A DNA stretch of 64,000 nucleotides. Origin: Chloroflexota bacterium (GTDB taxonomy: Bacteria; Chloroflexota; Anaerolineae; Anaerolineales; Villigracilaceae). A model generated the notes under the pieces. The model worked only from the letters and a program-made list of their open reading frames with translations, had not been told where the DNA came from and made no database searches. Made by a program: the position numbers and the translations under genes. The stretch lies in the NCBI GenBank assembly GCA_016195815.1, contig JACPYX010000004.1, positions 69,168 to 133,167 of the forward strand, given 5' to 3'. The first letter of the stretch is position 1; each line of letters begins with the position of its first letter. Shown in pieces: positions 1,298 through 35,800 of the stretch.

Positions 1298-3331
1298 GTG
1301 AAAACATCTCTGCGCCGACTTTCACTTTTTATAGACTCGCCTTTTGCCGCGCCTCTTCTGCTTGCGCTGGTCACGGTGCTGGCATACGGCTTGTTGATTC
1401 CGCAACTCGGCTTTTATTGGGACGAACTGCCGATGTCGTGGATCCGTTACGAGCTTGGCCCCGACGCGATGGCGCGTTACTTCTCGACCAACCGCCCGGT
1501 TTGGGGACTCCTTTATCAACTCACCACGCGGATATTGCCGCAATCCCCGATCTACTGGCAGGTCTTCGGACTGTTCTGGCGATGGATGTCCGCGCTTTTG
1601 GTCTGGGCGATCATACGGGACCTGTGGCCGGGCCGCCGTCAATTGGCTTTGATCGTCAGCCTGTTCTTTCTGCTGTATCCCGGCTTCAATCAGCAATGGA
1701 CGGCGTATCTTTACAGTCACTTCTTCATCGTTCTGTCTTTCTTCCTGTTTTCCATTCTATGTATGCTTTGGTCGCTCCGCTTCCCGCGCTGGTATTGGCC
1801 GTTGACCATTTTGGCGCTGGCCTTCTCGGCCCTCAACTTGTGGATGCTGGAATATTTCTTCACGCTCGAATTTTTCCGCCCGTTTGTCATTTTCTATTTT
1901 GTCTTCTCTTTTGAACATTTGAAAAGTTTTTGGCCCCGCCTGCGGCGAACGATTTTGCTTTGGATCCCTTACCTACTCGTCTTTCTCGCGGACGTTTATT
2001 GGCGGCTCTTCGTTTTCAATAATACCGTCTATCAGCCCGCACTCATTCCAAAGCTCAAAGCCGCGCCGCTGGCGACTCTCGCGGGTTTGGCGAGGACGAT
2101 TTTCTCGAACTTATACACAGTCAGCCTGGCGGCGTGGGGACAGGTCTTCCAGTTTCCCAACCCCGTTGTTGATGGTCCGCGCACAGTTATTTATTATTTG
2201 ATCGTCGTTTTATTGACCGGCCTGCTGGCGGCTTTCTTCCTGTTCGCCAATCGTTCGCCAGACAACGAACATCCGCGAATAAATTTCTGGCCGATTGGGC
2301 TTGGCCTGATTGCCATGCTGGCTGCCGGCGGTCCCTTCTGGCTGGCGGGACTTGACATTACGCTTGCCTATCCGGCCAGCCGATTTACATTGCCTTTCAT
2401 GCTGGGCGTCAGCCTGCTCTTGGCAGGCCTGCTTGAATTTTTCCCCGTGCGCGTTCGGCTGGGAATCGTTTCCGTGTTGATCCTGCTGGCCGCGGGCCGG
2501 CAGGCTTTATGGGCCGATGATTTTCGCCGCGATTGGAACACGCAGAAAACCATATTCTGGCAAATGTTTTGGCGCGCGCCTGGCATTGCGCCCAATACCA
2601 TTGTTCTGCTCAACGACGGCGCGTTCCAATTCTATGCAGATAATTCCCTCGCCGCCGCTTTGAATTGGATTTACGATCCGGGCAATCGTTCCAACGCGAT
2701 GGATTACGTTTTGTTCTTTCCGACGTCGCGTCTGGGCGGCAGCCTGCAGGGATTCGAAGCGGGCCAGCCGGTCACTTATGATTTTATTTCGGAAATCTTT
2801 CGCGGCAATACTTCTCAGGTGATCGCGTTTTATTATCAGCCGCCGGGCTGCCTGCGTTTGCTGGACCCTGAGATCGATTCTCAAAACCGGTTCATCCCCG
2901 ATGCGACACGGATGCGCGAGGCGGCGGGATTGTCCTCGTCGGCGTGGATAACGCCCGACGAAACGGCGCGCATGCCCAAAATCTATGGCCCCGAACCGGC
3001 GCGCGGCTGGTGCTATTATTTCGAGCAGGCCGACCTGGCGCGTCAAATGGGCGATTGGCAACGCGTCGTCGAGTTGGGAGACAAGGCCTTCAACCTGAAT
3101 GATTATCCCAACGATCCCATTGAACGATTCGTTTTTATCGAAGGCTATGCCCATACTGGAAATTGGACGCGCGCCAAAGAATTGGCGATCGCGTCGTATA
3201 AAGTTTCTCCGAATTACGTGAGTCCGCTTTTGTGCCGTTTATTGAATCGCATAGATCGCGGGCTTCCGGCCAGCGGCGAAAAGCAAACCAGTCTGAACGA
3301 CTTGCGTACCAGGTTTTCGTGTTTGCCGTAA
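1298..3331 (+). CDS. Large polytopic membrane protein, putative GT-C fold (ArnT/PMT-like) glycosyltransferase with soluble TPR-like C-terminus
   Basis: 677 aa with many hydrophobic helices. An acidic first-loop motif FYWDELP fits GT-C enzymes. GTG start. The family assignment is tentative. Confidence 0.5.
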   Translation: MKTSLRRLSLFIDSPFAAPLLLALVTVLAYGLLIPQLGFYWDELPMSWIRYELGPDAMARYFSTNRPVWGLLYQLTTRILPQSPIYWQVFGLFWRWMSALLVWAIIRDLWPGRRQLALIVSLFFLLYPGFNQQWTAYLYSHFFIVLSFFLFSILCMLWSLRFPRWYWPLTILALAFSALNLWMLEYFFTLEFFRPFVIFYFVFSFEHLKSFWPRLRRTILLWIPYLLVFLADVYWRLFVFNNTVYQPALIPKLKAAPLATLAGLARTIFSNLYTVSLAAWGQVFQFPNPVVDGPRTVIYYLIVVLLTGLLAAFFLFANRSPDNEHPRINFWPIGLGLIAMLAAGGPFWLAGLDITLAYPASRFTLPFMLGVSLLLAGLLEFFPVRVRLGIVSVLILLAAGRQALWADDFRRDWNTQKTIFWQMFWRAPGIAPNTIVLLNDGAFQFYADNSLAAALNWIYDPGNRSNAMDYVLFFPTSRLGGSLQGFEAGQPVTYDFISEIFRGNTSQVIAFYYQPPGCLRLLDPEIDSQNRFIPDATRMREAAGLSSSAWITPDETARMPKIYGPEPARGWCYYFEQADLARQMGDWQRVVELGDKAFNLNDYPNDPIERFVFIEGYAHTGNWTRAKELAIASYKVSPNYVSPLLCRLLNRIDRGLPASGEKQTSLNDLRTRFSCLP

Positions 3332-3475
3332 AATAGAAATGTTAAGTTTCTTCCCGAAATAATCTGTTGTTGATACAATCATCTGCAAGAATTGAAAGGA
3401 GGCGGCAGAAAGACGATTTCTCTCACGAAGCGCTTTGAAGAACGAAGTCCAAAATTTAAACAGGAGAAGAAGAAA

Positions 3476-4747
3476 ATGCGTAAGACAATTTTGCAATTCG
3501 CTTTACTGGCAGTGGCTTTTGCGATGGTTCTTTCCGCATGTGGCACTGCTCCAACTGCTGCTCCCGTGGCATCCGAAGCGCCCGCTGTTACTCAAGCTCC
3601 GGTCGTAACTGAAGCTCCGACGGTAGCGCCGACTGCAGCACCATTTACTTTTGGCATCTTGTTGGTTGGGCCTTACAATGACCAGGGCTGGAGTCAGGCG
3701 ACCTACGAAGGCGCTCAGTATGCCGAGAAACAACTTGGCGGCAAATTGGTTTACATTGACAAAGTAAACCCCGCGGATCGTCCCGGCACGACCGCTTCGC
3801 AATTGGCGGAGCAACTTGTCAACCAGGGCGCGAAGCTCGTCATCTTCAACTCGGACGACATGAAGGATGAAGCCCTCAAATTTGCGCAGGCCAATCCCGA
3901 TATTTATGTCATCGGTGCCTCGCTTGACTGGACATGGAAAGACGGTAAGAACTACAAAGAGTCACCCAATCAGACCGATATCATGGGCCGCATGGAATAT
4001 GGCAAGATGATAGCCGGTTGTGCCGCCGCCCTCACCACACAGACCGGAAAGATCGGCTACCTCGGGCCACTTATCAACGATGAGACCCGCCGCCTGGCTT
4101 CCTCCGCCTATCTGGGCGCGAAGTATTGCTGGACGAATTACCTCGGCAAGAATGCGGCAGACCTCAAATTCAAAGTCACCTGGATTGGTTTCTGGTTCAA
4201 CATCCCCGGCGTCACTTCCGACCCGACTCAGGTCGCGGATGAATTCTTCAACAGCGGCTATGATGTCGTCCTCTCTGGCATAGACACGACCGAAGCCAGC
4301 AAGGAAGCCGCCAAGTCTGCCGCGAGCGGCAAAAAGGCCTGGGCCATCCCGTACGATTACGTTGGCTCTTGCGAAGCCGCACCGGATGTCTGCCTCGGTG
4401 TTCCATACTTCAACTGGGGTCCCGCGTTTGCGGCAACGATCAAGACTGCATCCGATGGAACCTGGAAGTCTAACTTCCAGTGGAACGCGCCAGACTGGAA
4501 AGACATCAACAACAAAGACACCAGCGCAGTTGGCTTCGTCAAGGGCAAAGCCCTCTCCGCCGATGCCGGCGCAAATGTTGATAAATTCATCGCCGAACTG
4601 GCGGGCGGCCTGAACCTGTGGACCGGCCCGATCAATCTGCAAGACGGTACAGCTTATCTCAAAGATGGCGAAGTCGGCACTGACTTGCAAGTCTGGTATC
4701 TGCCGCAATTGCTCAAAGGCATGGAAGGCCAGAGTGTTTCGCAGTAA
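3476..4747 (+). CDS. BMP-family (nucleoside/purine type) ABC transporter substrate-binding lipoprotein
   Basis: AGGAG-like SD precedes the ATG at 3476. Signal peptide with lipobox LSAC-G, followed by an Ala/Pro/Thr-rich linker. BMP/PnrA-like body. Confidence 0.85.
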   Translation: MRKTILQFALLAVAFAMVLSACGTAPTAAPVASEAPAVTQAPVVTEAPTVAPTAAPFTFGILLVGPYNDQGWSQATYEGAQYAEKQLGGKLVYIDKVNPADRPGTTASQLAEQLVNQGAKLVIFNSDDMKDEALKFAQANPDIYVIGASLDWTWKDGKNYKESPNQTDIMGRMEYGKMIAGCAAALTTQTGKIGYLGPLINDETRRLASSAYLGAKYCWTNYLGKNAADLKFKVTWIGFWFNIPGVTSDPTQVADEFFNSGYDVVLSGIDTTEASKEAAKSAASGKKAWAIPYDYVGSCEAAPDVCLGVPYFNWGPAFAATIKTASDGTWKSNFQWNAPDWKDINNKDTSAVGFVKGKALSADAGANVDKFIAELAGGLNLWTGPINLQDGTAYLKDGEVGTDLQVWYLPQLLKGMEGQSVSQ

Positions 4748-30663: not shown

Positions 30664-32463
30664 TTATTTGCCTAATCTCGCTCGTTCCTCATCAATAACT
30701 GTTTCTTCTAGTTTTTTAAATAATGGGGCCGGCTGATTCAACTTCTTGCCAGGCTGTAACTCGCTGGGTTTCCATTGCGGGCGAGTCTCGGACTCGCCCC
30801 TGCGGTATCTCAACACCGTATGCTCGCCGAGTGAGTCTTTGACCGTCTCGGTGTATTGCTCGCCGAAGAGCGGAGTCTCATAGCCGAAGAAGCCGTGCAG
30901 TTTTTCGCAGGTGAACGGCAGGAAGGGGGCGAATATCACCTTGAGCGAGTCAATGGCTTTGAGGGCGGTGTAAACTGTTTTGGCCGCACTGTCTTTATCA
31001 ACTTTGATGGCCGACCACGGCGCGTTGACATCGAGATACACGTTCACGGCGGTGGCGAGTTTTATCGCTTCGCCCAGGGCAGAGCGCAGGCGCACGGCTT
31101 CGAGTTCCGCGCCCACAGAGTTGAATCCGTTTTCGATAACGGCCAGCAGTTCAACGTCCGTGGGACGAAGCGTTTTTACATCCACATCCGGCGCGTGCCC
31201 ATCCCAATTTTTATAACAAAACGCCAGCACGCGATTCGCAAGGTTGCCCCACGTCGCCACCAGTTCGTTATTATTGCGCGCCACGAACTCGGCCCAATCC
31301 CAATCGCTGTCTTTGGCTTCGGGCATGTTCGCGGTCAGGTAATAACGCAGGGCGTCGGGGTCATAACGCGTCAGCGCATCGCGTCCCCACACCGCCCAGT
31401 TGCGCGAGCCGCTGATCTTTTTGCCTTCGAGATTCATAAATTGATTGGCAGGCACATCGAACGGAAGAATGAGCGGGATTTCTTCGCCGGCGAAGATTTT
31501 CATGAATGCGCTTCCGACTCCCATCAGCTCGGCAGGCCACAGCGACGTGTGGAAGAAGATGTTGTCCTTGCCAATGAAGTGGAATTGCTTCGCTTTGGGA
31601 TTCGTCCACCACCCGCGCCACGCTTCATTCTCCGCCGATAACTGACTCCACTCGATGGGGGCGGAGAGGTAGCCGATGACGGCCTCGAACCAGACGTAAA
31701 GTTTTTTCGTTTCCCAGCCCGCCTCACTGACCGGGACGGGAATGCCCCAATCGAGATCACGGGTGATGGCGCGCGGTTTGAGTCCCTCAGCTTCAATCTT
31801 CCTCAGCGACTCGCCCAACACCGTATCACGCATGTGCGGGGCGCGTTCCTTGAGGAACTTCCTGACGTCGGGTTCGAGTTTGGAGAAGTCAATGAAATAA
31901 TGCTCGGTGTCGCGCAATTCGAGCGCGCCGTCGCCTGTCTTGGCGCGTGGATTAATTAGTTTTTCAGGCTCCAGCACGTTTCCGCAATTGTCGCATTGAT
32001 CGGAGCGTGCGCCCTCGAAGCCGCAAATGTAACACGTCCCTTCGACGTAACGGTCGGGCAGGAACTTGTTCGCGCTGGGTGAATACCATTGCTTGTTGAA
32101 CTGCTTGAACAGCAATCCGTTTTTTTGCAGGGCCAGGAAGATCGCCTGCGCGACCTTGAAATGATTCTCAGTGTGCGTAGATGTGAACAGGTTGTAGGTA
32201 ATGCCATAGCCTTTGAAGACTTCAAGGAAAGTATCGTGATATTTCTTATACACTTCCTCGACGGATTTGCCTTCCTTGTCCGCCGCCAGCACAACGGGCG
32301 TGCCGTGCGAGTCTGTGCCAGAAACCATCAAGACATTATTCCCTTTGAGTCTGTGATAACGCGCGACAATGTCGCCGGGCAGGTGCGAGCCGGTGATATT
32401 GCCAACGTGGATTTCGGCATTTGAATAAGGCCAGGCAATGGCGATGAGTATGTTTTCGGACAT
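30664..32463 (-). CDS. metG: Methionine--tRNA ligase
   Basis: 599 aa. HIGH-type motif HVGN, zinc knuckle CYICG...CDNCG, KMSKS-type KISGS. Confidence 0.95.
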   Translation of the reverse strand: MSENILIAIAWPYSNAEIHVGNITGSHLPGDIVARYHRLKGNNVLMVSGTDSHGTPVVLAADKEGKSVEEVYKKYHDTFLEVFKGYGITYNLFTSTHTENHFKVAQAIFLALQKNGLLFKQFNKQWYSPSANKFLPDRYVEGTCYICGFEGARSDQCDNCGNVLEPEKLINPRAKTGDGALELRDTEHYFIDFSKLEPDVRKFLKERAPHMRDTVLGESLRKIEAEGLKPRAITRDLDWGIPVPVSEAGWETKKLYVWFEAVIGYLSAPIEWSQLSAENEAWRGWWTNPKAKQFHFIGKDNIFFHTSLWPAELMGVGSAFMKIFAGEEIPLILPFDVPANQFMNLEGKKISGSRNWAVWGRDALTRYDPDALRYYLTANMPEAKDSDWDWAEFVARNNNELVATWGNLANRVLAFCYKNWDGHAPDVDVKTLRPTDVELLAVIENGFNSVGAELEAVRLRSALGEAIKLATAVNVYLDVNAPWSAIKVDKDSAAKTVYTALKAIDSLKVIFAPFLPFTCEKLHGFFGYETPLFGEQYTETVKDSLGEHTVLRYRRGESETRPQWKPSELQPGKKLNQPAPLFKKLEETVIDEERARLGK

Positions 32464-32497
32464 GAGGTGGCTCCGTAAGTAATTTGCGATTTGGAAT

Positions 32498-32526
32498 AAA
32501 AAAAGCCGCCCGCGTTACTGGACAGC
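32498..32526 (-). terminator. Intrinsic terminator inside the metG 5' leader (attenuator)
   Basis: Minus-strand RNA is GCUGUCC-AGUAACGC-GGGCGGC followed by UUUUUUU. The stem is 7 bp including 2 G-U pairs. It ends 35 nt upstream of the metG ATG. Confidence 0.55.
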
Positions 32527-32550
32527 CCGTTTTCGTTCAAGTTCGTAGGC

Positions 32551-32628
32551 CTAACGTGCTTTCCACTCGGCGCGGCAGAGCATTTCCATTCGCCCCTCCA
32601 TGTTGGGGGTTTTGGTCATGGTCACCAT
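32551..32628 (-). CDS. Putative Met-rich leader peptide ORF (25 codons) upstream of metG
   Basis: ATG GTG ACC ATG ACC AAA ACC CCC AAC ATG GAG GGG CGA ATG GAA ATG CTC TGC CGC GCC GAG TGG AAA GCA CGT TAG gives MVTMTKTPNMEGRMEMLCRAEWKAR. Five of 25 codons are AUG. No clear SD. Confidence 0.35.
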   Translation of the reverse strand: MVTMTKTPNMEGRMEMLCRAEWKAR

Positions 32629-32659
32629 TGGAAAAGCAGGTTTGTATTTCACGCTGCCA

Positions 32660-32688
32660 AGTTTACTATGTCCTCCGGCTGATGGCAA
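32660..32688 (-). promoter_or_regulatory. Candidate promoter for the metG leader
   Basis: Minus strand: TTGCCA (32688-32683), 17-nt spacer, TAAACT (32665-32660). Confidence 0.25.
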
Positions 32689-32859
32689 GTGGAAGATGCT
32701 CTTTTGGGCCTGCCAAGTATGAATTTAATTGTCAATACGGGTAAGCCGCCCTCCTATTGGATCGTTACTTAATTGTAAGATATTCACAACTTTCCGTATG
32801 CTATACTAAAAATTGATCATGGTTTATTTAATCCATTCTTTTGTGCCCTCGAGGTAACT

Positions 32860-35800
32860 ATGAAGTGGTACCAAAGCCGCACAATGTATTTGTTTGCCCT
32901 TGTGGGGTTTCTCGCGGGATTTGTATTTCTCGTTGCAGGTACCTGGCTTGATTCTATCAGGCATAGCATGCCGTTTACTGTAGAATCTTTTATCGCCTTG
33001 CATAAGATCGACCCCATGATATTAATGCTCGATATTGCCCCGCTTGTCATGGGTATTATGGCTGGATTAATCGGGACGCAACGCAGCCTTTCTACGGCGG
33101 TGGCTCGGGCAGAAAAGGAATGGGAGGTCATTTTCGACTCTTTTTCAGATCCAATATTTGTCATCAACATAAATAATGTGATTCTGCGCTGCAACCATGC
33201 TGTTGCAGACCGTCTTAATACAAACTTCGCAAACCTGATCGGAAAGCCTCTTATTGACACCATTGGCGTGAATCATCTGGATTCCATAAAAACTGGTATA
33301 GGAGAATTTCTGTGGCTAAAACGTTTATATGAAGTTTCTGCATATTCAATCCAGGCCGCGGATGTGGAACCGCAAACACTCATTATTTTTCATGATGTGA
33401 CTGATCGAAAAGAGGCAGAGGATAAACTATTCCTTGAAAAGAATCTCCTGCGAACATTAATTGACAACCTGCCGGACCGCATCTACGTCAAAGATACCCA
33501 CGGAAGAAAAAGCATATCCAACCATGCGGATATGCTCGCCTCTGGTGGGAAAACCATGCAGGATGTTGTTGGAAAATCGGATTTTGATCTGTATCCTGCC
33601 GAACTTGCCGAAAAGTTTTGGGCAGACGATAAAGCGGTGTTGGATACTGAATTCCCGGTATTAAATCGTGAAGAACCCGGCCTTGACGAAAACGGAAATT
33701 CAATCTGGGTAATGACATCGAAGGCGCCCGTAAAAGACAGCCTTGGGCAGGTGGTGGGACTGGTAGGCATTGGCCGCGATATCACCCAGCAGAAAAATAT
33801 TGAGTTGGAGATCAAGCGCCAGAAACAATTTTATGAAACACTTATTTCAAATAGTCCAGTTGCCATTGTCGTTCTGGATACCGATGAAAAGATCAGCTCA
33901 TGCAACCCGGCTTTTGAAAATTTATTCGGTTATAAAAGCGACGAGATTATGGGGGTGTCACTGGATACACTGATCACGACCGATGAAACTCGTTTGGAAG
34001 CTCGAAATTATACACAACAAGTCATGAATGGTACCGTTCATGCATTTAGCAAACGCCGCCGCAAAGACGGCTCTTTGGTGGATGTTGAAATTTTCGGCGC
34101 GCCCGTATTTGTGGAAGGAGAGAAGGTTGGTGCGCTGGCGATCTACCACGATATATCCGAAATTGTCCGCGCCCAGCAGGAAGCCGAAGAAGCCAACCGC
34201 TCAAAGAGCGAATTCCTCGCCAATATGAGCCACGAAATCCGCACGCCAATGAACGGCGTCATGGGCATGCTTGAACTGGCGCTTGATACCCAGCTTACTT
34301 CCGAACAGACCGATTATCTGCAAACATCGCTGCATAGCGCAGAAGCGCTCCTGTCCCTGCTCAATGATATTCTTGATTTCTCCAAGATCGAAGCAGGCAG
34401 GCTCGAACTCGAATCGATCAACTTCAGCCTGCGGAATGCAATCGAAGATGTGGCGTATACACTTGCCAAGCGCGCTCAAGACAAGGGACTCGAAATGGCT
34501 TGTTTGGTGGATCCAGACCTGACATCCAATTTGCGCGGCGACCCAGGCAGATTAAGACAAATATTGGTCAACCTCGTTGGGAACGCCATCAAATTTACGC
34601 ATCAAGGTGAGATCGTTATTCGTGCTGAGCCCATTGAAGAGTCAGATAACCACGTTACCGTCCATTTCTCGGTGCAGGATACAGGCATTGGCATCCCGTA
34701 TGAACGTCAGGCCGCAGTCTTCGACAGGTTTACCCAGGCCGATGGGTCCACCACGCGCACATACGGCGGAACAGGGCTGGGTCTCACAATTTCCAAGCAG
34801 CTGGTTGAAGTTATGGGAGGCAGGATCGGCCTCGAAAGCACACCGGGCATCGGAACTACTTTTTGGTTCGATGTAAAGTTCGAGAAACAACCTCCTGAAC
34901 GTCGCGGCGTTACAGCTCCGCTCACACTTGGGCCTGTGAACCTTGCACAGGCGCGCATTCTCGTTGTGGATGATAATCAGACCAACCGTATGATCCTCAC
35001 AAAGAATGTGGAAGCGCTTGGTTCCCGTGTGGATGTTGTCTCCAGCGGCGCGAAAGCCCTTGAGAGTCTTCGCAACGCGCATCGCACCGGCGACCCTTAT
35101 CACATCGTCCTGCTCGATATGCAAATGCCAGGCATGGACGGAGAACAGACCGCCCGCGCCATCAAGAGCGACCCTGCCGTGAAAGATGTCAAGATCCTCA
35201 TCCTCACGTCCATGGGACAGCGCGGAGATGCCGCCCGCCTCGAAGCGCTCGGATGCTCCGGTTATTTACTCAAGCCTGTAAAACAGCAAATGTTATTCGA
35301 TGCTGTTATCGCGGTACTGGGTCGCAAGGAAGACCAGCCACCAAGCCTCATCACGCGTCACCTGCTTTCAGAGCAAAGGAAATTCAACCTTCGCCTTCTA
35401 TTGGCCGAAGATAACCCCATCAATCAAAAACTGGCAGTCATCTTGTTGCAAAAAGCGGGCTACTCGGTAGATGCGGTAGAAACAGGCGCGCAGGCTCTCG
35501 AAAAAACGCAGGCCAATCACTACAGCGCCGTACTGATGGATGTTCAAATGCCCGAGATGGATGGTTTCGAAGCCACGCGCCGCATCCGCGCATGGGAACA
35601 GGAAAACAGCCAGCATGTTCCAATCATTGCCATGACGGCACATGCCATGGCGGGAGATCGCGAGCGCTGTCTCGAAGCAGGAATGGATGATTACATTACC
35701 AAACCGCTGGAGCCGCGCGCATTGTTCAATGCCATTGATCGCTGGACGCAAACCGATACCCCGCCCGGCGCTTCTGTCGCGGCCGGCCTTCCGCAGGATT

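Follow-up and report, generated by a model that had tools for sequence, protein, structure and literature searches.

Introduction

In Firmicutes, the genes of aminoacyl-tRNA synthetases are usually controlled by the T-box. The terminator of the trp leader exceeds its antiterminator in stability, and the choice between the two is kinetic. An attenuator for a synthetase operon is reportedly found in Escherichia coli, where pheST is preceded by the pheM leader peptide. The pheST system has been cited as the gamma-proteobacterial precedent for synthetase attenuation, and trpS and leuS in Streptomyces were described as candidate leader-peptide attenuators (PMC1262725); hisS paralogs in Bacillus are further candidates (PMC2965389). 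A report on Deinococcus deserti describes leader peptides that start at the mapped transcription start and precede cysS and other synthetase or biosynthesis genes (14 genes); the cysS leader peptide has 10 amino acids (aa), two of them Cys, and the peptides were predicted to work by attenuating transcription of the synthetase genes (PMC4007540). In mycobacteria, leaderless polycysteine short open reading frames (ORFs) are translational attenuators (bioRxiv 10.1101/834739). For Chloroflexi, the count in an early survey came to only three T-boxes in each Dehalococcoides genome (PMC2494555). Here we describe a leader element in front of metG, the gene for methionine--tRNA ligase (MetRS), in a 64-kb stretch of DNA from an Anaerolineales bacterium of the phylum Chloroflexota (assembly GCA_016195815.1, contig JACPYX010000004.1, positions 69,168 to 133,167). 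This whole stretch is called the window, and positions are counted from its first nucleotide (nt).

The element consists of a Met-rich leader ORF followed by an intrinsic terminator. We consider it likely that it is a classical ribosome-mediated transcription attenuator, which would tune metG to the supply of charged elongator tRNA-Met. The first-pass annotation of the window had proposed a ribosome-mediated attenuator at this synthetase gene, and that proposal is supported by the conserved ORF, its frame, the terminator and the pairing potentials, with the corrections given below.

Results

The leader of metG in the window

The regulated gene, metG, encodes a methionine--tRNA ligase of 599 aa (30664..32463, minus strand; NCBIfam TIGR00398, 457.5 bits against a cut-off of 336), and all leader features given below lie on the same strand. 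A 25-codon ORF (32628-32551, MVTMTKTPNMEGRMEMLCRAEWKAR and stop) with Met at positions 1, 4, 10, 14 and 16 had been noticed upstream of it, and both sequence and translation agree with that description. The Met-rich ORF stands, but its start does not. The frame is open upstream to a GTG at 32652, 7 nt past the -10 box, and homology to relatives with an ATG start places the true start there, 8 codons further upstream; the leader ORF thus comprises 33 codons and a stop (VKYKPAFPMVTMTKTPNMEGRMEMLCRAEWKAR, 32551..32652). Its in-frame AUGs at 32628, 32619, 32601, 32589 and 32583 form the putative regulatory Met-codon tract (32581..32628).

The intrinsic terminator begins 24 nt past the leader ORF's stop codon, as had been noted, and is made up of GCUGUCC (32526-32520), an 8-nt loop, GGGCGGC (32511-32505) and seven U (32504-32498). 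The consensus scan also returned it, assigning the first two U to the stem; scan and RNAalifold give a GC-rich 9-pair stem, GGGCUGUCC / GGGCGGCUU, with the 8-nt loop and a U run (32498..32528). Between the end of the T run and the metG ATG at 32463 lie 34 nt, one less than the 35 nt reported before, and the leader, earlier given as at least 165 nt, comes to about 189 nt. A Shine-Dalgarno (SD) sequence for metG, GGAG, can be read at 32471..32474; GGAG or GGAGG is kept before the metG ATG in relatives. The candidate promoter pointed out earlier (32660..32688) is present, with TTGCCA as -35 (32688-32683), a 17-nt spacer and TAAACT as -10 (32665-32660). It was the sole sigma-70-like match of a promoter scan within 31500-34000.

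Conservation and linkage to metG

A genome scan, with one genome per species, gave 80 loci whose MetRS is 78-86% identical to that of the window. Nearly all were labelled as Anaerolineales, Anaerolineae or Chloroflexota metagenome-assembled genomes. The relatives listed by a protein search all had at least 82% identity. An ORF followed by a terminator was found before metG in 78 of 78 genome loci with enough upstream sequence (75 canonical, two variant and one partial); upstream sequence was too short for judgement in L050 and L078. The element is placed further upstream of metG in L035, is present in L004 but cut by the contig end, and occurs in L074 and L075 as a variant with a different terminator sequence. 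Within 200 nt upstream of metG, the conserved block has the consensus ATGGTGACAATGACCATGGCCATG..ATGCGAATGGA.ATG...GCCGCGCC.A.TGGAAAGCACGTTAG, then a short spacer and AACGGGCTGTCC-loop-GGACAGCCTTTTTGTTTG. A comparative alignment of metG leaders had been proposed as a check of the attenuator; it showed that the AUG enrichment, the frame, the stop position and the terminator are all conserved.

Metagenome contigs were scanned with an exact pattern (GCACGTTAG, 18-32 nt, ACGGGCTGTCC), which matched 99 times. Two of the matches were chance matches in unrelated GC-rich DNA, and the element was present in the other 97. In 81, metG lay downstream on the same strand within 700 nt; in three, an ORF of about 270-280 aa stood between terminator and metG; and in 13 there was too little downstream sequence to tell. 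None of the matches stood before another regulated gene, and the element is therefore dedicated to metG. A Met regulon, with the same leader at other genes, was rejected because all informative metagenome matches precede metG. The comparison indicates that the feature is real and strongly conserved, far beyond chance, and that it is almost certainly a regulatory leader.

Four loci carry an Anaerolineales-type metG together with the leader under the labels 'Gammaproteobacteria bacterium', 'Herpetosiphon sp.' or 'Anaerolinea thermophila' (L070, JAJTYX010000105.1; L080, DYDH01000115.1; L045; L079). These odd labels are probably due to binning contamination or loose naming.

Among the relatives, the leader unit was always found on the metG strand and next to metG, whichever gene lay upstream. 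This placement speaks against an independent small gene, coding for a Met-rich peptide or a small RNA, that would end at its own terminator while metG is transcribed from its own promoter. Promoter, ORF and terminator would indeed make a complete unit of that kind, and the M-x-M-x-M pattern resembles Met-rich metal-binding motifs; yet the residues between the Met codons are not conserved. The spacing can be read either way. In many relatives, 100-340 nt or a whole ORF between terminator and metG could hold a promoter, but in several relatives, as in the window, the T run and metG are only about 20-35 nt apart, with nothing promoter-like between them. In the window, the promoter scan gave no promoter-like site between T run and metG ATG, and the 34-nt gap therefore leaves no room for a separate metG promoter. 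Moreover, a second, conserved partner is available to the 5' arm of the terminator, and its end coincides with the stop codon of the ORF, as described below. We regard an independent gene as very unlikely.

The distance from terminator to metG varies from about 20 to 340 nt in relatives, and the intervening DNA is filled with unrelated inverted repeats or whole ORFs. Because both distance and content vary, control would have to act at the terminator rather than where the ribosome binds the metG message.

The post-terminator spacer of relatives was seen to hold long inverted repeats, which fall into several recurring types (L005:2890-3000, L002, L013, L043, L184:1380-1490). One type reads CATGTCATTGCGAGG...GAAGCAATC...GATTGCTTCG...CCTCGCAATGACAT, and others begin with AACACAAAGGGCACGAAG, TAGCGGTTAGC or CGAATATCGAA. 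They look like mobile elements of the REP (repetitive extragenic palindromic) or MITE (miniature inverted-repeat transposable element) kind that settle beside the terminator. The window spacer has no such repeats. ORFs between terminator and metG were found in L172 (270 aa), L165, L168 (282 aa) and L182/L183:956-1480 (174 aa). The 270-aa protein of L172 has predicted hydrophobic stretches and no Pfam match; for the 174-aa ORF, no Pfam match is on record. Genes in this position would share control by the Met leader.

The leader ORF and its translation

The consensus leader peptide of the relatives is M-(N/K)-(F/T)-(K/R)-P-A-(F/Y)-P-M-V-T-M-T-M-A-M-R-M-E-M-x-C-R-A-x-W-K-A-R-stop. A -10 box (TAAAAT, TAAACT or TACAAT) occupies the homologous place in 75 of 75 genome loci and in 92 of 94 informative metagenome loci, and TTGACA is found 17 nt upstream of it in 34 of the 75. 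From -10 box to start codon, the spacing was 7 nt in 69, 6 nt in 5 and 8 nt in 1 of the genome sequences, and 7 nt in 79, 6 nt in 12 and 8 nt in 1 of the metagenome set. Taken together, 167 of 169 sequences have the box 6-8 nt ahead of the start codon (7 nt in 148, 6 nt in 17, 8 nt in 2). Bacterial transcription normally begins 6-8 nt past the -10 element. With this spacing, the leader start codon would lie at, or one base from, the predicted 5' end of the transcript, and the promoter geometry makes it most likely that the ORF is leaderless. The missing SD sequence, earlier counted as a weakness, is therefore not one, because the start codon sits at the predicted transcription start. The start codon was ATG in all 166 other sequences analysed and was replaced only in the clade of the window; since its closest relatives (98% identical MetRS, GCA_016191495.1) have the same GTG, this codon is real.

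Frame usage was then compared. Apart from the start codon, 405 ATG triplets inside the ORFs are in frame, against 5 and 15 in the other two frames. The ORFs fall into 20 length classes (21-50 codons), and each keeps one frame from the conserved start to the conserved W-x-A-R-stop; the noncoding spacer past the stop is 21-27 nt long and follows no multiple-of-three rule. Conservation of frame, start and stop holds for 75 genome and 92 metagenome sequences. The residues between the Met codons are freely variable (T/L/S, A/L/S/Q, R/Q/P/K, E/D/N), unlike the Met codons. The in-frame ATG bias, the frame-keeping insertions and deletions and the variable residues between the Met codons point to an ORF that is read by the ribosome, not to an untranslated RNA. 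As far as sequences can tell, the evidence for translation is strong.

The same data bear on a structured RNA that would bind a ligand, a tRNA or a protein (a riboswitch, a T-box-like element or a site of autoregulation by MetRS), the ORF being a by-product. An ATG frame bias of 405 to 20, insertions and deletions that keep the frame, and a start fixed at the promoter would be unexpected in an untranslated RNA. Nucleotide conservation is high all the same, third codon positions in WKAR included; the AUG-rich region can form hairpins, since CCAUGG is self-complementary; and some synthetases, such as ThrRS of E. coli, are known to bind their own leaders. Searches of Rfam gave no match in the whole window at the gathering score, only a meaningless microRNA match within 32300-33000 at E<=10, and none in the loci of seven relatives at E<=1. 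A T-box or SAM element over the leader had been named as the result that would speak against the attenuator, and no match to either was obtained. The T-box riboswitch (RF00230) was ruled out at the metG leader because no covariance-model match was found in the window or the seven relatives, and SAM riboswitches and known leader families were ruled out by the same searches. In addition, the terminator alone emerges as consensus structure. A ligand-binding, tRNA-binding or protein-binding RNA is thus very unlikely in our judgement.

Met is by far the commonest codon of the leader (405 of 2197 internal codons) and the only strongly enriched one. Across the relatives it makes up 21% of the residues, with a mean of 6.4 per peptide and 5-9 in most. 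In the divergent leaders L074 and L075 (both MKHSAMMMSC...) and L049 and L058, a leaderless Met-containing ORF and a terminator are kept; the peptides read MKHSAMMMSCIHEQFSAR (L074), MNENGLMMSRPHLQFKAR (L075) and MNKGFTSMEQMSLPYSTRDER (L049), each followed by a stop. These observations count against a general sensor of translation rate or stress, in which the leaderless ORF would gauge the overall capacity of ribosomes or of initiation, its Met codons being incidental: the Met codons are almost all in frame, and they persist in the divergent leaders where all else has changed. Such a sensor would fit with leaderless initiation, which needs 70S ribosomes and fMet-tRNA (see also PMC9031893), and with the conservation of the non-Met parts KPAFP and CRAxWKAR. 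These parts, however, coincide with helix segments 1 and 2 described below, and the leader of aspS-asnS in the same window uses Asn and Asp codons, which points to cognate-codon logic. A general sensor seems to us quite unlikely.

A 36-nt palindromic insertion (ACACTTGCACCTGGCGCAAGTGCAGGTG..., read as TTLAPGASAGVT) was observed within the leader ORF of several loci (L001:471-506, L012, L013, L040, a longer form in L028, and many metagenome loci). In every case it preserves the frame and brings in no stop codon. L046 has a related sequence in its noncoding spacer. The metagenome leader L172 is degenerate (MKTIMRIQTCDWKAR and stop), with one internal Met, and ATA (Ile) at the expected Met codons. 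Its terminator is intact, and the attenuator may have become insensitive.

Alternative helices of the leader RNA

The terminator (3:4 helix) is the RNAalifold consensus structure of the 75 genome sequences, and its nine pairs are standard in all but one alignment cell. Its 5' arm is nearly invariant, and its 3' arm varies between A and G, keeping U-A or U-G pairs. An invariant 5' arm opposite a variable 3' arm fits with two pairing constraints on the former, that is, with a second partner. This arm belongs to segment 3 (AACGGGCUGUCC, 32520..32531), which antiterminator and terminator would share. RNAalifold on the full alignment yielded the terminator only, because consensus minimum-energy folding cannot show alternative helices.

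The proposed second partner is segment 2 (GGAAAGCACGUU, 32553..32564), which spans the four sense codons at the end of the ORF together with the initial base of the stop codon. The antiterminator (2:3 helix) joins GGAAAGCACGUU(A) to (U)AACGGGCUGUCC along 12-13 positions, interrupted by two A-G mismatches that are conserved, and ends at the stop codon. A pairing of GGAAAGCACG (32564-32555) with CGGGCUGUCC (32529-32520), 8 of 10 positions, had been proposed as antiterminator; the pairing is confirmed, and its extent is not, as it forms the core of this longer helix. In alignment A1, 75.7% of the cells of the 13-pair helix are paired, against 19-50% for slid registers. When all upstream 14-nt windows were compared as duplex partners of the terminator 5' arm, the best one ended at the stop codon in 54 of 75 sequences. 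Nascent transcripts were also folded, truncated before the terminator 3' arm and with a ribosome masked on the last Met codon; in 64 of 75, the fold of minimum energy was the antiterminator, at -12.1 kcal/mol on average. The codon after Trp is AAA, AUA or AUG (K/I/M), which turns an A-G mismatch into U-G, or A-U into G-U. Such changes are radical for the peptide, yet they improve or keep the pairing in the antiterminator helix.

Segment 2 has a further potential partner upstream. In ribosome-free folds, it mostly pairs with leader nt 10-22 (GCUUUCC, codons A-F-P) in a long hairpin that encloses the Met tract. In the window, this anti-antiterminator (1:2 helix) is GCUUUUCCA:UGGAAAGC, its 5' strand being segment 1 (GCUUUUCCA, 32629..32637). 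In A1, pairing extends to 78% of the cells of the 1:2 helix, whereas in slid registers the tested structure as a whole has 33-43%; four of the seven pairs have changed on both sides. The cognate duplex energy was -7.40 kcal/mol, compared with -6.93 +/- 0.11 kcal/mol after permutation, and none of 300 permutations was as low.

The position of the ribosome would decide which helices can form. With a ribosome placed at the stop codon, the terminator fold was obtained in 75 of 75 sequences. In 69 of 75 sequences, the last Met codon precedes the stop by 9-11 codons, and a ribosome stalled on it would therefore leave segment 2 exposed.

The window copy differs in several respects. Its terminator hairpin has -12.5 kcal/mol, against a family median of -16.0, and its antiterminator is weaker too, with -7.8 kcal/mol. 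This copy can also form an extended helix between GCCGCGCC and the loop and 3' arm of the terminator. It is nonetheless fully homologous to the leader family.

The proposed mechanism and its weak points

Transcription would begin about 7 nt past the -10 box, at or beside the first base of the ORF, and translation would be leaderless. The ribosome would then meet 5-9 in-frame AUG codons. When Met-tRNA-Met is plentiful, it would reach the UAG and cover segment 2, leaving segment 3 to pair with segment 4; the terminator would then form, and transcription would end ahead of metG. When Met-tRNA-Met is scarce, through low methionine or low MetRS activity, the ribosome would stall on the AUG tract and open the 1:2 hairpin; the freed segment 2 would pair with segment 3 before segment 4 is made, and RNA polymerase would read into metG. 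In the event that no ribosome is engaged, 1:2 and 3:4 would both form and transcription would terminate.

What the sequences and their comparison show directly is a conserved ORF that keeps its frame and is enriched in Met, a terminator, the potential for the pairings, and linkage to metG alone. Several points weigh against the attenuator. Its dynamic steps (transcription start, translation of the ORF, termination, stalling and the kinetic competition of helices) are predictions. Evidence for the RNA switch consists of pairing potential and conservation, and covariation is weak. In the antiterminator, only 2 cells have changed on both sides, a number equalled by shuffles; covariation is almost absent because both strands barely vary, and the two A-G mismatches are themselves conserved. 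The signal of the 1:2 helix is modest and could be inflated by sequence relatedness. With the whole terminator present, the terminator was the predicted fold in 50-96% of sequences, depending on the stalled Met codon, and its median energy of -16.0 kcal/mol exceeds the -11 to -12 kcal/mol or so of the antiterminator. A purely thermodynamic switch was rejected, as the terminator still wins in most masked-ribosome equilibrium folds. Because the terminator is the more stable of the two, the switch has to be kinetic and hang on the order of synthesis. There is also the physiology of the synthetase to consider. MetRS charges initiator tRNA as well, and Met starvation could lower fMet-tRNA and with it initiation at the leader, which would favour termination. 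Lastly, the copy in the window is atypical: a GTG start is found only in its clade among 170 leaders, it has five Met codons, an insertion (KTPNMEG) interrupts the M-x-M rhythm, and its terminator is the second weakest of the 75.

We nevertheless prefer the ribosome-mediated attenuator, because each of the other explanations weighed above fails on the in-frame Met enrichment, on the fixed link to metG, or on the conserved partner at the stop codon.

A second leader before aspS-asnS

The first-pass annotation had seen the same design before aspS-asnS, and this was borne out: a mini-ORF rich in Asn and Asp codons is followed by a terminator. The element (51687-51527, minus strand) has TATAAT, 8 nt and an ATG, from which an ORF with 8 Asn and 4 Asp is read. 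Its terminator is UCGCCC, a 14-nt loop, GGGCGA and UUUAUUUU, and GUUGGGCGA within the ORF can pair with the terminator 5' arm. Downstream lie aspS (ATG 51423), which by Pfam encodes AspRS, a class II synthetase with a GAD domain, and asnS (49569-48214), which encodes a class II D/K/N synthetase of 451 aa. By its sequence, this leader is a second putative attenuator of the metG-leader design.

A generic scan for short ORFs that have a -10 box before their start codon and a terminator behind them was run on the window and the collected metG loci. It matched only the metG leaders, the aspS leader and a few small ORFs without amino-acid bias. One conserved small ORF in metG flanks (L095 and L036) reads MH(K/E)DKV(R/Q)AILDDGLKVAGIK and stop, lies 6-8 nt past a -10-like box, and has a terminator behind it; no amino acid is favoured in it. 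An ORF pair at 1298-4747 has the same lengths as aspS-asnS, and a duplicate of these genes was considered; this was rejected, as the first ORF (1298-3328) is not similar to AspRS.

It is possible, although we lean slightly against it, that in Anaerolineales, and perhaps more widely in Chloroflexota, many or most synthetase genes are under leaderless leader-peptide attenuators that replace the T-box of Firmicutes, metG and aspS-asnS being the first two members. If this were true, the metG case would also be the first in which an attenuator uses the initiation codon as its regulatory codon.

Neighbouring gene

The gene upstream of metG encodes a hybrid histidine kinase on the plus strand, with its start at 32860. 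As it is divergent from metG, the 396-nt gap belongs to the control regions of both genes.

Discussion

The mechanism that we propose for the metG leader is known, and what appears to be new is the codon specificity (Met), the gene (metG) and the phylum (Chloroflexota). A targeted full-text search, which did not cover the Deinococcus deserti gene list, found no Met-codon leader peptide or metG attenuator. The earlier suggestion of a 'lineage-specific alternative to T-box control' overstated the novelty, since leader-peptide attenuators of synthetase genes (pheST, trpS, leuS, hisS paralogs) were already known. As the mechanism belongs to the textbook, the gain is in breadth, not in principle.

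The finding provides a well-supported cis-regulatory annotation for an essential gene in a large and mostly uncultured order. The leader region has no Rfam family, and annotation would otherwise show a hypothetical small protein there or leave the intergenic region empty. Its natural variants, about 155 distinct ones, are a data set ready for a covariance model. With its start codon fixed at the predicted transcription start, the leader would also offer a clean system for leaderless translation coupled to transcription. Interest would grow if the same design governs many synthetase genes in the lineage.

Compared with the T-box (RF00230), the metG leader would likewise let a synthetase gene be induced by uncharged tRNA through antitermination at a leader terminator. 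It has no T-box structure or sequence, however, and its sensor would be a translating ribosome instead of direct tRNA binding.

The likeness to pheST lies in a cognate-codon-rich short ORF, an intrinsic terminator with an alternative antiterminator, and control of the cognate synthetase gene. The codons differ (Phe in pheST, Met here), there is no sequence similarity, and the phylum is another one. The pheM ORF also has its own ribosome-binding site, whereas the metG leader starts at its predicted 5' end.

The report on D. deserti offers a start codon just past the -10 box, a peptide rich in the cognate residue and a synthetase gene, all of which recur here. The starts in that report were mapped by differential RNA sequencing (dRNA-seq), whereas that of the metG leader is deduced from promoter geometry. 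The two also differ in phylum and size, the metG peptide being longer (about 30 aa) with 5-9 regulatory codons.

The mycobacterial polycysteine ORFs resemble the metG leader in being leaderless, in their run of cognate codons and in amino-acid sensing through ribosome stalling. There, the stalled ribosome opens a structure that hides a downstream ribosome-binding site, and control is at translation. The metG leader, in contrast, has a canonical intrinsic terminator and a variable distance to the metG ribosome-binding site.

The scheme also resembles the trp, his and leu attenuators of the Yanofsky model and the candidate attenuators of trpS and leuS in Streptomyces and of hisS paralogs in Bacillus, with which it would share the four-segment logic of 1:2, 2:3 and 3:4 helices and the masking of segment 2 by a ribosome at the stop codon. 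As in the trp leader, its terminator is the more stable of the two competing structures. It differs from them in its leaderless start, in a regulatory codon, AUG, that is also the initiation codon, and in a segment 1 that lies upstream of most regulatory codons instead of containing them.

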